Source: a virus. From it: a stretch of 64,000 bases of DNA. Shown here piece by piece: positions 20,304 through 63,478 of the stretch. The stretch lies in IMG/VR virus record IMGVR_UViG_3300013233_000195, positions 1 to 64,000 of that record; one strand, written 5' to 3'. Numbering within the stretch: position 1 is the stretch's first letter; each line of letters opens with the position of its first letter. Below the pieces are notes generated by a model. The model worked only from the letters and a program-made list of their open reading frames with translations, had not been told where the DNA came from and did no database searches. Both the position numbers and the translations under genes were made by a program.

Positions 20304-20553
20304 CTCAGAAGTGGGAGAGGAAAGCAAGCCCAAGTATGTTCTTGGGCTTGTCTTACTAGAAGGAGGTTCTGTAGAAATACTTCCTCAAATAGAAGTAGGA
20401 GACAGTAAGTTTACATTTAATGTTGAAGATACAGAAGACATTTACAGAGCAAAGGCTCTGATCGCCGCCGTCCAGGAGGCCCTACAGCTCAACACTGTGG
20501 CCGGGCTTGTCGTCGAGGCACTGGGGGGGTTGACAGACGAAATTAGTCCTTGA
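20197..20553 (+). CDS. hypothetical protein
   Basis: ORF track. Confidence 0.55.
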   Translation: METLTVQRTKEHWQKVERQRRIDPLALQDQESLQDNSEVGEESKPKYVLGLVLLEGGSVEILPQIEVGDSKFTFNVEDTEDIYRAKALIAAVQEALQLNTVAGLVVEALGGLTDEISP

Positions 20554-42499: not shown

Positions 42500-42554
42500 G
42501 GGGGACTACAAGCGATTCTCACACAAGAGTTGAGCACAGGGAGTGGCCCCCGCT

Positions 42555-42700
42555 TGTGCTCGTTAGTATAACATACCATTTTTTTGAGCTAAATTTACAT
42601 TGGCTAATTTTTTTTGAGCTTCTGTGCTCTCACCTGTGCTCTTTAGTGTAACATACCATTTTTTTGAGTCATTTTTATGGTGGCTATTTTTTAGCTTAGT
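42555..42700. repeat. two imperfect direct repeats, 80-bp period
   Basis: TGTGCTCnTTAGTrTAACATACCATTTTTTTGAG at 42555 and 42635, each followed by TGGCTA and a T run. Confidence 0.85.
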
Positions 42701-42813
42701 TCATGCCACCTTGAGATTTCCGATTTTGGAGTAAAAGATATCTATATCTTTTTATCCGGAGTTGGACTGGCGGAATGCCCCACGCGCGCGTTGCGCGTGG
42801 GGCCCGCCCCTAC

Positions 42814-43491
42814 CTACTCCGCGTCGTCGTCCGCGTCGTCGTCCGCGTCGTCGTCCGCGTCGTCGTCCGCGTCGTCGTCCGCGTCGATCAACGCGCGGAC
42901 GGCCGATTCGGACGCATCCCGCTCCAGCGTATCAAGCTGGCGGGCCAGCGTTTCGTGATCGGCGATCACGCGTCCCAAAAGCGTGTCGTCGTCCCCAGTA
43001 GGACGTTCCAAGAGAGAACGAACCCCGCGCAATGCCGACAGATAGAGTTTGTCATGATTCAGAACCGGATACCAGATAGACTTTTGAACCCCCTCCATCG
43101 CAAGCCGGGCCTCAGGCTTGTGGGCAAGGTGCGCAGGGAGTCCGGAAACAATCGCGGCTTGCGCCGTCCATCGGGCGGTTTTTCCCGCCGCGTGATAGGC
43201 GACTAGCCGACATTCTCGAAGTACTGTATCGGCCTCTTTTCCACCTACCTTGTAGGCGTGAATCTCCACCTCCTGCCCCTTGGGTTTGCGTCCACGCCGC
43301 GTAGCTTTGCCTGATACTCCCTCCGCGATCTTTCGGATTGCGTCAAGGGGATCATCATCGGCCACCATTCCGAGAATCCCGACACCGGCCAAGCCAATCA
43401 TGCCGACCAAGGTGCCAGCGTTGACGACTTGCGCCACAAGCTCCAACGCGAGCAACGCAAGAGCAAAAACGAGGAGCCAAGAACTACGCAT
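42814..43491 (-). CDS. membrane-anchored hypothetical protein with (DDAD)n acidic tail
   Basis: GGAGG RBS, hydrophobic N-terminus, GC-rich DNA. Confidence 0.65.
   Translation of the reverse strand: MRSSWLLVFALALLALELVAQVVNAGTLVGMIGLAGVGILGMVADDDPLDAIRKIAEGVSGKATRRGRKPKGQEVEIHAYKVGGKEADTVLRECRLVAYHAAGKTARWTAQAAIVSGLPAHLAHKPEARLAMEGVQKSIWYPVLNHDKLYLSALRGVRSLLERPTGDDDTLLGRVIADHETLARQLDTLERDASESAVRALIDADDDADDDADDDADDDADDDAE
42818..42886. repeat. 12-bp tandem repeat, 5.75 copies
   Basis: (TCCGCGTCGTCG)x5 plus 9 bp. Confidence 0.95.
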
Positions 43492-45984: not shown

Positions 45985-46073
45985 GGGGCCGGCCAGATGG
46001 CCTACTGAACAAACGTATAGTAAAATTTGAAAATCCTTTTTATTGATTGATTTTTTCCCCTTCCGCTGTTTAT

Positions 46074-46247
46074 CTTATAATCTCTTTTATATCGCCTAGC
46101 TTATCTTATGGGGGATTTCTTATCGGGTGTCTTATCTCTAATGAGGCTTCATATCGGCTATCTTATTCTATCATGCTTGACTCTTATCTTATCGGGGCTC
46201 TTATAGTGGTTTATATCTTATAATGGAATTCTTATCGGGTGTCTTAT
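46074..46247. repeat. CTTAT-rich non-coding tract
   Basis: About 12 CTTAT pentamers; TTCTTATCGGGTGTCTTAT twice (46117, 46229) and a variant near 46187. Confidence 0.8.
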
Positions 46248-49024: not shown

Positions 49025-49053
49025 ATTATACCATGGCGAGACGTGGCTGTCAA
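49025..49053 (-). promoter_or_regulatory. consensus sigma70 promoter
   Basis: Minus strand TTGACA-17 bp-TATAAT with TG extension. Confidence 0.9.
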
Positions 49054-54613: not shown

Positions 54614-55180
54614 TTATCCATTGTGTTCCCTCCGAATTCGGAAGGTATGGTCATTCTGGTCAAATGAGTCAAACTTGAGGAAAAACTGACTTTCAGAATC
54701 CTCTGTTAGTGCCTTGAGAATCTCCAAAGAAAGCGGATCTGGAGTCTCGTAAACAGGCTGTGCTAATGGAAAACCAAAGGGTCGAGAGAATCTCTCAATG
54801 GTAGCCCAGTTATGCCAATAAGAGTGCCCAGTTGACCAAAGATCCGTTATAAAGAATTCATTTACGGCCTCTGGAACAATACCCTGGACTGCAAAGAGAG
54901 GGAACATTGCCACCATCTCTGTGGGTTGGAGAACATGTCCTGGGAAGATCTCATTTCCAACAGAAATTGTCCTTACAATCTCTATAGTTTCCCCCTTGAT
55001 TACAAGGTGTGACCCAGAGTCATTATCATACAGCAAAGTTGGAAAACCCACAGGAGTCTTGAGAAGAATCTTAGGTCCAAAGTCTCTCAAAAACTCCGGT
55101 GGATTATCAAAATCCAGGAGAGGATGAATTTGTGGACTAGTTAGCTTCATGCTCTTCTCCAAAGGAATAGGAGGGGGCAT
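54614..55180 (-). CDS. hypothetical protein
   Basis: Probable start MKLTS (55150). Confidence 0.6.
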   Translation of the reverse strand: MPPPIPLEKSMKLTSPQIHPLLDFDNPPEFLRDFGPKILLKTPVGFPTLLYDNDSGSHLVIKGETIEIVRTISVGNEIFPGHVLQPTEMVAMFPLFAVQGIVPEAVNEFFITDLWSTGHSYWHNWATIERFSRPFGFPLAQPVYETPDPLSLEILKALTEDSESQFFLKFDSFDQNDHTFRIRREHNG

Positions 55181-55196
55181 TAGCCCCCTCCTATTC
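55165..55196 (-). terminator. 14-bp stem-loop after DUF932 gene
   Basis: GAATAGGAGGGGGC-4 nt-GCCCCCTCCTATTC; weak T tract. Confidence 0.65.
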
Positions 55197-55204
55197 TCAC
55201 TTGT

Positions 55205-56269
55205 TTAGACCAATGCCAAGATTGCGGAAGCCTTACGATCTAGGTCCGCTCGACTTCCAGCAAACTTGCTATTCTGAGAAAGTCGAGTCATAGCATCCAC
55301 AACGGAGAAAGCACTGAATCGGTTAGAAGTCTCTTCAATAAGGTCTGTGACCATTTCCGAAGCCTTCTTCGAATACCCCTGCTTCTGGAGAAGCGTAAGA
55401 ACCTCTTCCTTATAGCCCAGGTCAGTATTCTCAGCAGCCCGCATCTTTGTTACAAAAGCATCCTTGCGAAGGTCTGAGATCCTGATAAGATCCTCGACCA
55501 TATAGCTGATATCGCTAAGGATTCTCTGTGAGTTTCCAACATGCCGACGGACAACCTGCTGAACCTCCGTAGCATCCCAAACAATATGGTTTGCACAGAT
55601 GTACTGGTACCAGAAGGTCTCAATACCAACAGAGCGAGAACCAACCTCTGAATTCCAAACAAAGAATCCAGGTGAGAACTCCTGGTTTTGTCCGCCAACA
55701 TCAAGCTCTACACGAGTATCAGGATCAACGAGAAACATGAACATATCCTGCTCACCCGTATAAAGCCCAGTAGCTCCATTAAACCCCTTCTTAGGAGGAG
55801 CATAATGAGGAGCGGCCTTTGAGATTGCGTCCACAACCTGAGAATCCCAAATTCGGGAATACTTATTGCTTGTTACTGCTCGAAGCTGTGCGTCAGGCTT
55901 TCCCTCTTTCAGAGTTACAAGAGAACGAACTGAACCAGCAGCAGAAGCTCTCTGTGAAAACAGTTCATTCAAAGCCACTGCTGCCGTGTGAGAAGACAGC
56001 CGATTGATCGTTCTCTTCTCTGCTCCGGCCATTCTACAAAGCTGAGAGAATGCCCAGGAGTTGATTGAGTAGGTATTACTGGAAGTACAAAGATTCACAG
56101 TGAGAGTATTGGGATCTGACTCAAAAGAGAGCTGATTAGCAGGCACGGAGAACTCTCCACTATCGCTCATTCGTTCCAGACAAGCCCTGTGAAGACTGGG
56201 AATGTCTTCAAAAGTCTCATCTGCCTTACGACTGAAAAGCTGATGACTGGCCTTCAAAAGATTTGCCAT
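55205..56269 (-). CDS. DUF932-family protein
   Basis: WAFSQLC, LRAVTSNKYSRIWD, GFFVWNSEVG, ICANH.VW, RHVG. Confidence 0.8.
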   Translation of the reverse strand: MANLLKASHQLFSRKADETFEDIPSLHRACLERMSDSGEFSVPANQLSFESDPNTLTVNLCTSSNTYSINSWAFSQLCRMAGAEKRTINRLSSHTAAVALNELFSQRASAAGSVRSLVTLKEGKPDAQLRAVTSNKYSRIWDSQVVDAISKAAPHYAPPKKGFNGATGLYTGEQDMFMFLVDPDTRVELDVGGQNQEFSPGFFVWNSEVGSRSVGIETFWYQYICANHIVWDATEVQQVVRRHVGNSQRILSDISYMVEDLIRISDLRKDAFVTKMRAAENTDLGYKEEVLTLLQKQGYSKKASEMVTDLIEETSNRFSAFSVVDAMTRLSQNSKFAGSRADLDRKASAILALV

Positions 56270-56655
56270 TTTCTTGGCTCCTGATTAAGAGTAGCCCTAG
56301 CCCGCCTAACTTGAGCGTGCAACCAATCAATGAACTGGAGACAGTCATCTCGGTTTACATTAGCTCTTCCTCCTATATGCCATTCATAAGGCTCTAGGGA
56401 CGCTTTCATACGAAACTGCTCCGGTGTTGGAAGCCCCGCAGCATACTTGCTTGTCTCCTTGTAATCGTAGAGAGTCCAAAGAGTCCCATCATCCCCACGA
56501 AGTACCCATTCTGTTGATACTTTGCCCCCATCTCCAGCACCATTTGGAGAACCTAATGCCACCACAAGCTCAGGATAGGTAGCTGAAAAGTAACCCTTTA
56601 GACAAGTGCCTTCAGGGCTATCACTGATTACTGCATACATAAGCAATCCTCCCAT
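56254..56655 (-). CDS. phage hypothetical protein
   Basis: ATY.ELV..LG.P...KVSTEW...TLYDYK...EWHIGG; probable start 56640. Confidence 0.7.
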   Translation of the reverse strand: MGGLLMYAVISDSPEGTCLKGYFSATYPELVVALGSPNGAGDGGKVSTEWVLRGDDGTLWTLYDYKETSKYAAGLPTPEQFRMKASLEPYEWHIGGRANVNRDDCLQFIDWLHAQVRRARATLNQEPRKWQIF

Positions 56656-56667
56656 GCCAACGTCGTG

Positions 56668-56776
56668 TCATGACGGGATTGACCCACCAAGGGAAAAGGT
56701 CGGATTGTTCCCGACAATCTACCCTGTATCATGACGGGATTGACCCACCAAGGGATAAGGCCGGATTGTTCCCGAC
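56668..56776 (-). repeat. two 48-nt direct repeats (61-nt period) in a 5' leader; candidate structured RNA
   Basis: 56668-56715 and 56729-56776, 2 mismatches; each copy folds into two hairpins. Confidence 0.85.
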
Positions 56777-56783
56777 GGCCAAC

Positions 56784-56812
56784 ATTATAGCACGGCGGAG
56801 CGGGGCCGTCAA
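56784..56812 (-). promoter_or_regulatory. sigma70 promoter
   Basis: Minus strand TTGACG-17 bp-TATAAT with TG extension; two more GGGGTTGACG upstream. Confidence 0.85.
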
Positions 56813-56842
56813 GGAAAAAATCGTCAACCCCCCGTCAACCCC

Positions 56843-57070
56843 TCACTCGCAGGAGTCTGGTCTTGTAAAATAGTAGTAAAAATCATGTTGATTGGTATAA
56901 ACGTCGCAAGTGCAAGGTACTGCATGCGTTCTATTATATCTCTCAAAAAATTGCTCGTTGAAATCCTGATTGTAGAGACTATGATCGGGGAAAATACACT
57001 TTACTACATCACTGCAAGCAGAGAGGAGAAGAACAGCACAAAGAATAACCGCAGACCAAAGGTAACGCAT
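56843..57070 (-). CDS. small putative lipoprotein
   Basis: Signal peptide with lipobox LSAC; GGAGG RBS. Confidence 0.65.
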   Translation of the reverse strand: MRYLWSAVILCAVLLLSACSDVVKCIFPDHSLYNQDFNEQFFERYNRTHAVPCTCDVYTNQHDFYYYFTRPDSCE

Positions 57071-57080
57071 GGTAAACCTC

Positions 57081-58166
57081 CTAGAATGGGGGACGAACTG
57101 CCATAGCCTTCCGAATAGTCAATCCCAGGTAGTAGTCGCTATCATGGTGTGTCCTAGCCTTTCCGTGTGAGTAATTCCACAGGATTGTGGCTATCTCAGC
57201 TACAGTGAAGCGATTTTTAGCTAGGAAGGCAGCTAAAGCGTAGTCAAGACCTGAACGAGAGTGATCTGCTTTCTGCGTTGTATTCCCAAGCCACAGTTGG
57301 CGCACTCTTTCATTACGAAGTAGCTCTAAAGAGAACCTAGCAGGAAGCTGTGCTTCCTTATAATCTCCCAGAGTAAAGTCAACTCCCTCAATAGTACGAA
57401 AGTTACTACTCTGTATATTTTCAACAGAGATTTTGGTAACTTCATCCATCATGAGAGAAAGTCTACCATCCCAAGGTTGAAGGATCTTAGCCATTCTGTG
57501 GGGGCGCTCTGGAGTATTCTCTCCTTTGATGCAGAGAGTCCCAGGAATCTTTACAATTCGGGCAAGATCGTAGACATTATCAATATTAATCCTAAACTTA
57601 TGTTCCCACTTACTTCTTAGCTGATCCTCCCACACCATTAACTGTTTGGTAATCTCTTCTCTCTTATTGGGTTCAATCTTGTAATGATGCACAGGGAACC
57701 AGGGATAGGCTCCATTTCCAGAGCTAATAATGGGATTGTTCTCATCCTTGGCAATCTCTTGAGCAGCTCTAATTGCCTGTAGGTGCTCTGCTTCTGTTGC
57801 CGCACAATTTCCACAGTTGGGCCTTTTGGCATCTATGTCAAGAGACAGGTTAGAAATCCACTCAATGTCAGTAGAACGTCCTCCCCGGCAAATGTCTTCC
57901 TTATGGAAGGAAATCCTATTTCTTAGATTGGGAGTGACAATAGCCTTTGGTCTTGCATTTCTTCCTGCGTAGAGATTATACTTTCCAGCAAGCTCTGCTA
58001 GAGCATCTACAAAAGCATCTTCGGACACAAAGAAACCCAACCCAATGTGTGGGCCAAAGCGCTCCTTTGGATTGATTGCTCGGACCTCTGTACATGACTG
58101 TGGGAGTTCATGGTGTCCCAAGAGCTTCCAAAAGGCTCTGACATCCTTTTCATTAAACTTTTCCAT
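57081..58166 (-). CDS. archaeo-eukaryotic primase / RepB'-like primase-polymerase
   Basis: TEVRA, Y.G.N, LDID, SSGNG, DLARIVKIPGT, C-terminal DHSRSGLDYALA helical bundle. Confidence 0.75.
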   Translation of the reverse strand: MEKFNEKDVRAFWKLLGHHELPQSCTEVRAINPKERFGPHIGLGFFVSEDAFVDALAELAGKYNLYAGRNARPKAIVTPNLRNRISFHKEDICRGGRSTDIEWISNLSLDIDAKRPNCGNCAATEAEHLQAIRAAQEIAKDENNPIISSGNGAYPWFPVHHYKIEPNKREEITKQLMVWEDQLRSKWEHKFRINIDNVYDLARIVKIPGTLCIKGENTPERPHRMAKILQPWDGRLSLMMDEVTKISVENIQSSNFRTIEGVDFTLGDYKEAQLPARFSLELLRNERVRQLWLGNTTQKADHSRSGLDYALAAFLAKNRFTVAEIATILWNYSHGKARTHHDSDYYLGLTIRKAMAVRPPF

Positions 58167-58650
58167 GTTTAGCCCTTGTTATATCCTTCCCACGAAACTC
58201 AACCCCATACGTTTGATAGGCTTCTTTCAGCTCTTTTGCTTTTTCGGTTCCCATAAAGTATCTAACTAGCTTGAGATAGGTTGCCGCAAACTCTCGACCA
58301 TGCCAGCTAGCTTTAGCTGGTCTAATAGTATGCGCTATCTCCTCCAAAAGCACGCCAATACGCCGAAACTCTCTAGGAGCCTTTATATAGAACCCTGTAA
58401 TGGGATTCCAACCACCTTCTGCACTCTGCCTCCCCCTACCATCATGTACCTTAATTTTCAGACTTTTGTAGGGGCAGAGGTTTTTGAGAAACCAGGGACT
58501 CGTTGTCACAAGGTCTACGAAGTCTTGACATACTTGAACAGAGACAAATTCGGGGAGATCTCTAAAAAGATGAAAAGTAACATTCTGTGCCTCATAAAAC
58601 TTATCTCTCTGGTAATCCCTGTAAGTGTTCGAAAATGGACTCTTTCTCAT
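58153..58650 (-). CDS. zincin-like metallohydrolase homolog with altered HExxH
   Basis: RDYQRDKFYEA...LLEEIAH...HGREFAATYLKLV. Confidence 0.65.
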   Translation of the reverse strand: MRKSPFSNTYRDYQRDKFYEAQNVTFHLFRDLPEFVSVQVCQDFVDLVTTSPWFLKNLCPYKSLKIKVHDGRGRQSAEGGWNPITGFYIKAPREFRRIGVLLEEIAHTIRPAKASWHGREFAATYLKLVRYFMGTEKAKELKEAYQTYGVEFRGKDITRAKHGKV

Positions 58651-59870: not shown

Positions 59871-60431
59871 TTATTCCCTCCATAAAAGTCGGGGATTGAT
59901 TGCTACGTTGTTGTCCAAAACCTCGTAATGCAAATGGTAGCCCCTGGCGTTGCCGGTATTTCCAACAGTTCCAAGTATATCCCCTTGAACTACTTCTTTG
60001 CCCTTATAGACATTTGTTCTGTCTAGATGGGCGTATACTGTCGCAAGACCATTCTGGTGATCTACACAGACAGTATTTCCATATCCAGGGTAATAGCCTA
60101 CCTCAGTCACAACTCCTGTTGCGGTGACTTTGATGGGAGTTCCCCATGGAGAAGCAAGATCAATCCCGGTATGATCTCTGGTTCTTAGTTTCCCAAACCC
60201 CGCACTTACTGGACCGGGAACAGGCGGAGAAAGGGGAAGATGAGAAATAGACTTTTCTATGTCATATTCCACCCCCTGCATTGACTCAGTATTTTCTTTG
60301 AGTTGGAAGACCTCCTGCTCTAGGATAGTTACCCTCTGTGAGAGATCCTCTATATGGGACATGAAAAACCCAGCCCCAACAAAAAGTCCCCATGCAATAG
60401 CACAGAGGATGATAGCAAAGGTGTATCGCAT
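59871..60431 (-). CDS. M23 metallopeptidase with N-terminal membrane anchor
   Basis: HTGID, GYGN, YAHL, VGNTG, HLHYEV. Confidence 0.92.
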   Translation of the reverse strand: MRYTFAIILCAIAWGLFVGAGFFMSHIEDLSQRVTILEQEVFQLKENTESMQGVEYDIEKSISHLPLSPPVPGPVSAGFGKLRTRDHTGIDLASPWGTPIKVTATGVVTEVGYYPGYGNTVCVDHQNGLATVYAHLDRTNVYKGKEVVQGDILGTVGNTGNARGYHLHYEVLDNNVAINPRLLWRE

Positions 60432-60452
60432 TGCTTTGCCCCCAATAAAAAG

Positions 60453-60528
60453 TGGAAGCCCCGGTGGGATTCGAACCCACGGCTTGCTCATTAGAAGTGA
60501 GCCACTCTGTCCACTGAGTTACGGGGCC
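60453..60528 (-). tRNA. tRNA-Arg(UCU)
   Basis: GCTCA-CTTCTAA-TGAGC arm, TTCGAAT, encoded CCA. Confidence 0.92.
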
Positions 60529-63443: not shown

Positions 63444-63478
63444 GCAAAAAAGCGTCAACCCCCCTCCCGGTTGTGACT

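Follow-up and report, generated by a model that had tools for sequence, protein, structure and literature searches.

What is the role of two nearly identical 48-nt segments found in the leader of a phage operon, between a strong promoter and the ribosome binding site (RBS) of the first gene? An earlier note, made from the sequence alone, had described these segments as tandem structured repeats in the leader of a DUF932 operon and proposed that they function either as a cis-regulatory aptamer or protein-binding leader or as processed decoy RNAs. The stretch of DNA that was analyzed (the window) is 64,000 nucleotides in length and is the first part of the 100,623-bp IMG/VR virus record IMGVR_UViG_3300013233_000195. 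The completeness of this record was estimated by CheckV to be 37%, and thus it is taken to be a fragment of a large uncultured phage. The phage is rich in tRNA genes, which are grouped in long minus-strand arrays upstream of the repeat locus. No relative of this phage was identified by megablast of the phage and plasmid collections, and peptide scans based on its DUF932-like protein and its primase-polymerase-like protein did not yield a close relative.

Geometry and Conservation of the Repeat Units

The two units are direct repeats on the minus strand. Unit 1 is located at positions 56729–56776 and unit 2 at positions 56668–56715, with a period of 61 nt. The two sequences are identical at 46 of the 48 positions, and the differences (G/A at position 16 of the unit and A/T at position 21) are those given in the earlier note, the coordinates and period of which were confirmed. 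Each half-unit has exactly two matches in the window, compared with none in shuffled versions of the window. The pair was missed by Tandem Repeats Finder because it extends over less than two full periods. Each unit contains two related cores of the form GGG-N1-2-CAATCC, for a total of four in the block, and no other minus-strand occurrence of this core was found in the 100-kb record. Unit 2 terminates in a perfect 8-bp palindrome.

The units are separated by a 13-nt linker (56716–56728, minus strand) that is unlike the sequence before unit 1 or after unit 2. When the 13 nt preceding each unit were compared with one another, 7 of 13 positions were mismatched, relative to 2 of 48 within the units (Fisher p = 1.2e-4). 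The 13 nt following each unit differ at 8 of 13 positions (Fisher p = 1.6e-5 for the same comparison). A recent 61-nt tandem duplication is therefore excluded, since the linkers are unrelated while the units are nearly identical. The near-identity of the units would be explained by purifying selection, by homogenization through conversion, or by replacement of the linker. The units appear to matter, because they are conserved next to linkers that are unrelated, and by this comparison they look selectively maintained, through either constraint or homogenization.

The entire block is flanked by a 6-nt direct repeat, GTTGGC, with the upstream copy at 56778–56783 and the downstream copy at 56656–56661 on the minus strand. 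The two copies are exactly 122 nt apart, which is twice the 61-nt period, and excision of the block between them leaves a canonical leader of approximately 15 nt. The block is non-coding, since the period of 61 nt is not a multiple of three and each reading frame reads the two copies differently. A coding function was considered and rejected; neither an overlapping plus-strand ORF of 67 amino acids nor a minus-strand upstream ORF of 34 codons has support. A function as an origin of replication is also not favored, given that the units are richer in G+C than the genome and that an iteron-like array is found elsewhere, at 46.1 kb.

Other repeats were observed in the window. The iteron-like array (46071–46247) lies in a stretch with few ORFs. 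It consists of four 34-nt units bounded by TATCTTAT that are spaced at 31, 31, and 81 nt, and is a candidate for a replication origin or a protein-binding array. Further repeats occupy 42546–42692 and 42794–42910: two 67-nt direct repeats with A/T-rich ends, 79% identical and 80 nt apart, and, adjoining them, a GTCGTC-type repeat with a 12-nt period in a patch of high G+C content.

Promoter and Leader

The promoter of the operon is of the sigma70 type and is located at 56784–56812 on the minus strand. It has a −35 element TTGACG (56812–56807), a 17-nt spacer, a TG extension (56792–56791), and a −10 element TATAAT (56789–56784), with a score of 11/12. The promoter ends 7 nt before unit 1. Transcription would plausibly start at or next to the first base of the repeat, in agreement with the placement in the earlier note of the repeats at the predicted start of a strong promoter. 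The RBS (GGGAGGA, 56653–56647) and the ATG start codon (56640–56638) of the first gene lie together at 56638–56653 on the minus strand, and an alignment of homologues agrees with this start region. Unit 2 ends 14 nt from the GGGAGGA sequence, close to the approximate value of 15 nt given before, and 27 nt from the ATG at 56640. The block occupies the leader from the inferred +1 to 14 nt ahead of the RBS.

The leader is 137 nt in length, compared with 6–75 nt wherever in this record a promoter of the same family directly precedes the protein gene that it drives. The longer leaders elsewhere in the record are accounted for by promoters in tandem or by tRNA genes behind the promoter. The picture that emerges is that of a repeat module that joined an otherwise standard leader and has since been maintained as two copies.

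Approximately 17 near-consensus promoters of the sigma70 type are found in the record, and these share a common design, in which an A/T-rich upstream stretch precedes TTGACA, a 17-nt spacer, and a TG-extended TATAAT. Examples from the window are those at 223, 6898, 7223, 14909, 20550, 32425, 49053, 51694, 56812, 59047, and 63443. Some promoter-leader cassettes are duplicated, at 49053/51694 and at 100484/100370, the latter beyond the window. Many promoters of the family are immediately followed by a G+C-rich 5′ hairpin, and thus RNA structure at the 5′ terminus is a habit of this genome.

Two extra G-rich copies of TTGACG, with an 11-nt period, are located at 56822–56842 on the minus strand, immediately beyond the upstream gene's stop codon and ahead of both the A/T-rich stretch and the −35 element. 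The motif GGGGGGTTGAC, approximately 21 nt upstream of the −35 element, is also found at two other promoters of the record. The combination of a G-run with a second TTGAC(G/A) copy at this distance occurs at 56822–56842, near 63470 (minus strand), and near 20525 (plus strand). The extra TTGAC(G/A) copies may represent a site for an activator or, alternatively, a −35 element in tandem.

Just upstream of the promoter, a 75-residue ORF (56843–57070, minus strand) has a signal peptide and a lipobox-like LLSAC sequence. It is probably a small phage lipoprotein, judging from these motifs, and as such it suggests a Gram-negative host. Other genes are found further upstream. A 165-residue ORF (58153–58650, minus strand) matches the HEXXH metallohydrolase family TIGR04338 below the cut-off (E = 6e-12) and is adjoined by a 361-residue protein with a weak primase-polymerase PHROG match. 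An M23 peptidase is encoded at 59871–60491.

Predicted Folding of the Units

Each unit had been drawn in the earlier note as two hairpins, and the CAAT sequence is present in both of the drawn loops. The free energies of this two-hairpin form were calculated to be −12.5 and −13.2 kcal/mol for units 1 and 2, respectively. The mean minimum free energies of dinucleotide-shuffled sequences are −13.1 and −12.3 kcal/mol, and the drawn form accounts for 2% or less of the folding ensemble. The minimum-energy fold is a different one, a single elongated structure in which the 5′ CGGGA pairs with the 3′ UCCCG, with energies of −16.8 and −16.5 kcal/mol and z-scores of −1.4 and −1.9 for units 1 and 2, respectively. 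Folding of the whole leader gave a z-score of −0.5. No predicted fold is statistically distinguishable from shuffled sequence (z = −0.5 to −1.9), and the description of the units as structured is not upheld.

The complementary strand folds worse, with z-scores of +0.15 and −0.33 compared with −1.4 and −1.9 for the transcribed strand. The RNA-level reading is mildly supported by this difference and by the dependence of the drawn stems on G-U pairs. The substitution at position 16 had been presented as a change from a U-G to a U-A pair. It retains the pair with U2 in the two-hairpin fold and equally with U30 in the minimum-energy fold, and thus it cannot be counted as covariation for either one. 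With two copies and two substitutions only, there is no covariation evidence. Hairpin 1 forms first when the RNA is folded stepwise, and therefore the two-hairpin form is possibly transient. The RBS is not paired to the units in the predicted folds. Pairing of the CAAUCC loops with GGAUUG at the RBS, as an anti-Shine-Dalgarno interaction, was considered and rejected; the complementarity is equaled by 14% of the shuffled units (P = 0.14).

Genes Downstream of the Leader

The operon had been named after DUF932. A DUF932-like gene is present, but it is the second gene, and the first gene encodes a protein of another family. The first gene (56254–56640, minus strand) encodes a protein of 128 amino acids from a phage family in which the motifs KVSTEW, LYDYK, and EWHIG are invariant in the alignment. 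No match to this protein was found in Pfam, PHROG, NCBIfam, or PADLOC. The AlphaFold model (pLDDT of 85.5) has one clear match among solved chains, which is the mitoribosomal protein mL103 from Tetrahymena (Foldseek E = 7e-7, VIA Z = 12.7, profile E = 8e-5, with LYDYK in common). The next fold matches are weak (Z of 4–6), and KH and KA1 RNA-binding domains are found at Z of 4–5. The widespread phage family of the first gene is a clear relative, in both sequence and fold, of mL103, a ciliate-specific protein of the large ribosomal subunit in Tetrahymena mitochondria.

The second gene (55205–56269, minus strand) encodes a DUF932-like protein of 354 amino acids (phrog_1362). The Pfam match is below the cut-off, and full-length matches to annotated DUF932 proteins were obtained with tblastn. 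Directly after this gene, and before the next one, there is a perfect 15-bp G+C-rich hairpin (55164–55197, minus strand) with a weak U tail, which could be a partial terminator or a 3′ stabilizer inside a longer gene run. The genes past the hairpin, including one for a GP88-family protein, continue to the next strong promoter near 51.7 kb. No match was found when the proteins of the locus were compared with defence families.

Searches for Other Copies and Relatives

The earlier note did not recognize the repeats as a known riboswitch, and this was confirmed with Rfam. A cmscan search of both strands of 55500–58000, at E values up to 10, returned three weak matches elsewhere and none within 56640–56800. 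No third copy was found in the whole 100.6-kb record, using either BLAST-short or a covariance model built from the two units. The best extra match (E = 0.66) is the T-arm of a phage tRNA-Gln, which shares a common 5-bp stem. In this tRNA (L085, 6293–6369, record positions 70293–70369, minus strand) the T-stem is the same as the stem of hairpin 1 (GTCGG/CCGAC) and the T-loop is normal. The likeness to the repeat unit was judged to be a coincidence. Exact and gapped motif scans of the IMG/VR viral contigs did not identify a unit. The two-core pattern in JGI metagenomes and 185,579 species genomes gave chance matches inside genes only, in coding sequences from two assemblies, one of Gastranaerophilales and one of Tannerellaceae.

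In a set of 5.8 billion proteins, the best homologue of the first gene has 52% identity, and relatives are encoded at 102 IMG/VR viral loci. The analysis covered 80 of these loci, and at none of them is there an upstream tandem repeat or a DUF932 neighbor. The covariance model found nothing below an E value of 0.5 at the same 80 loci, and all of the matches were on the wrong strand. Several of the homologues are directly behind strong promoters with short leaders. In five large viral records with a first-gene homologue, no DUF932-like gene was found. The DUF932-like protein is at most 29% identical to its matches by tblastn in cultured phages, and no similar repeats were found in the regions upstream of distant DUF932 genes from Mesorhizobium and Synechococcus phages.

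Relatives with a single unconserved copy and no structural covariation had been named as evidence that would count against the proposal. The relatives that could be compared are distant ones (52% protein identity or less), and they show no copy at all. Formally this counts against the proposal, but the survival of a leader is not expected at such distances. The case that it makes against an ancient conserved element is weak, and it is silent on a lineage-specific element.

Comparison with Known Systems and Alternative Explanations

Stabilizing stem-loops and protein operators at the 5′ terminus of bacterial and phage mRNAs include the ompA 5′ UTR, the leader of T4 gene 32, and operators of the regA type. 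As in these leaders, a noncoding and potentially folded segment extends here from about +1 of a strong promoter to shortly before the RBS. The difference is that a 48-nt unit occurs twice around an unrelated linker, in a leader that is 2–20 times longer than others in the record. Small intergenic repeat modules that shape leaders include the pneumococcal BOX elements, REP/BIME sequences, and the promoter-early stem-loop cassettes of T4-type phages. The block resembles these in that a short module within a leader is flanked by a short direct repeat, and promoter-hairpin cassettes are repeated in this genome. Those families have many dispersed copies, whereas here the only copies in 100 kb are two neighboring ones, and the public collections searched contain no others. 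The repeat element belongs to no catalogued family; as a regulatory or stabilizing leader element it is of a familiar kind.

The reading that we prefer, tentatively and without regarding it as probable in absolute terms, is that the units are a lineage-specific leader RNA that acts in cis, a duplicated module for protein binding or for the stability of the operon mRNA. It is favored because the block fills the leader from the inferred +1 to just before the RBS, because this leader is unusually long, because the GTTGGC flanks are insertion-like, and because the repeated GGG-N1-2-CAATCC cores are specific to the locus on the minus strand. The 5′ hairpins behind many other promoters of this phage provide a local precedent, and the mL103-like product of the first gene a candidate binder. 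It is weakened because the folds are indistinguishable from those of shuffled sequences, with the two-hairpin form a minor one, because the element is absent from all of the relatives examined, and because gene conversion rather than selection could keep the units identical. The proposal of a cis-regulatory or protein-binding leader thus stands insofar as the block is noncoding, is within the transcribed leader, and has units conserved relative to the linkers; the structural argument for it is weak.

The main rival, which we consider rather unlikely but by no means negligible, is a neutral or nearly neutral remnant of insertion and duplication. A piece of approximately 60 nt would have entered at GTTGGC, been duplicated by unequal exchange between the 6-nt flanking repeats, and then been kept alike by gene conversion. 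The placement of GTTGGC on both sides of the block at exactly two periods is what such a history would leave, and the restriction to two copies in 100 kb, the lack of conservation in any collection searched, the lack of significant predicted structure, and the short leaders with which the first-gene homologues of other phages manage all agree with it. However, the middle linker has diverged to near-random sequence while the units are still identical at 46 of 48 positions. Close direct repeats of 48 nt are readily lost by slippage, and their persistence suggests a benefit. Extra leader sequence behind one of the strongest promoters is also unlikely to be invisible to selection. A different possibility is that the element acts as DNA. 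The four GGG-N-CAATCC cores and the GTCATGAC palindromes, within the first 110 bp transcribed, would form an operator at which a bound phage or host protein is a roadblock that blocks or times transcription. The locus-specific, four-fold repetition of the cores and the 8-bp palindrome at the end of unit 2 are compatible with such an operator, and the extra TTGACG copies near the promoter suggest a complex control region. We regard an operator as improbable, since a conserved block of 48 bp far exceeds the usual operator, the spacings between cores (26–27 and 34–35 bp) show no helical phasing, a palindrome in the second stem requires G-U pairs, which points to RNA, and the motif is absent from all of the other promoters in the record.

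The remaining alternatives retain a function for the RNA but assign it differently. The closest functional analogy among those left is antitermination of the put type. The HK022 put sites act in cis and cause terminator read-through without protein factors. They are double hairpins of approximately 65 nt that are made just after early promoters and require co-transcriptional folding (PMC8632103). By analogy, each unit would fold during transcription into a double hairpin that stays on the polymerase and permits read-through of terminators in the early run. Several features are in accord with such a mechanism: a candidate double hairpin can be drawn immediately after an early-type phage promoter, with unit 1 at +1, where it could act in cis on the polymerase; hairpin 1 is the first to form in stepwise folding; and the gene run contains a strong hairpin of 15 bp behind its second gene. 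Nevertheless, the unit is 48 rather than 65 nt, the put sites are single rather than tandem, and the double hairpin is a minor predicted conformer and not the stable fold of the completed unit. The U tail of the internal hairpin is poor, so that antitermination may not be needed, and we consider this mechanism to be unlikely. Processed trans-acting RNAs of approximately 48–61 nt, serving as decoys for a host nuclease, a defence system, or an RNA-binding protein (a pseudo-antitoxin, an RNA anti-CRISPR, or a sponge), are more doubtful still. Phages that carry pseudo-ToxI repeats are known, and this phage is unusually rich in small RNAs by virtue of its tRNA arrays. [quoted passage not shown] The layout here, with short direct repeats that begin at a promoter and lie upstream of a gene for a small protein, is superficially similar. 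However, there are only two units, they are not head-to-tail, and the 13-nt linker between them is not repeated. No hairpin or terminator-like site is present in the 27 nt that separate unit 2 from the ATG. The downstream protein has no signal for ToxN, CptN, or TenpN and no ToxN-like match in Pfam or PADLOC. The matches listed for its model include no ToxN or MazF-like chain, and the clear best one is mL103. No match to ToxI or to another Rfam family was obtained, and the two-core pattern in the 185,579 species genomes was restricted to chance matches within genes. An antitoxin-type decoy is accordingly disfavored, and nothing was found in support of a crRNA mimic. Tandem ligand-binding aptamers, the riboswitch form of the original proposal, are the least credible of these readings. 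The position in the 5′ leader, the two copies, as in some tandem riboswitches, and the mutually exclusive alternative folds could be expected of a riboswitch. Opposed to this are the lack of an Rfam match and of conservation outside this record, folds that are no better than those of shuffled sequences and leave the RBS unsequestered by the units, loop/RBS complementarity at the level of chance, and downstream genes with no metabolic link.

Two other types of leader signal were considered and rejected. No boxA-like match (similar to GCTCTTTAACAA) was found in the leader, as would be expected for a nut or rrn-type leader, and the few partial matches in the record are elsewhere. For the RfaH ops element (GGCGGTAGNNTG), the linker contains the 3′ part (GGTAGNNTG) but lacks the 5′ GC; the 17 short forms in the record are close to the number expected by chance.

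Proposed Function of the Leader

If the units are a cis-acting leader RNA, a noncoding module would have been added to an ordinary short phage leader and would act at the level of RNA. The transcript of a strong early promoter would include the module from its first base, and the mRNA would begin with a folded 5′-terminal domain that presents two identical binding platforms, with a total of four hairpin cores that contain CAAU. A protein that acts in trans on these platforms would set the stability and/or the translation of the operon mRNA. The candidate for this protein is the mL103-like 128-residue product of the first gene, which would close an autoregulatory loop; the binding of RNA by this protein is a conjecture. 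A more specific version of this proposal is that the repeats represent a new kind of leader RNA module, a four-hairpin CAAU platform that is either bound by an mL103-type product of the first gene or directly reprograms the polymerase or the ribosome. We think it improbable that this version is correct, but if it is, then the module would be a private early-operon switch of a tRNA-rich phage.

The reach of the element is limited by its confinement to one metagenomic contig. If the repeats are only the scar of an insertion, then they are an ordinary example of the plasticity of leaders. If the units are functional, they would show, in a compact form that lends itself to testing, how a large uncultured phage can adjust an early operon by means of its leader RNA, and they might give the first ligand for a widespread phage family that shares a common ancestry with a ciliate mitoribosomal protein.
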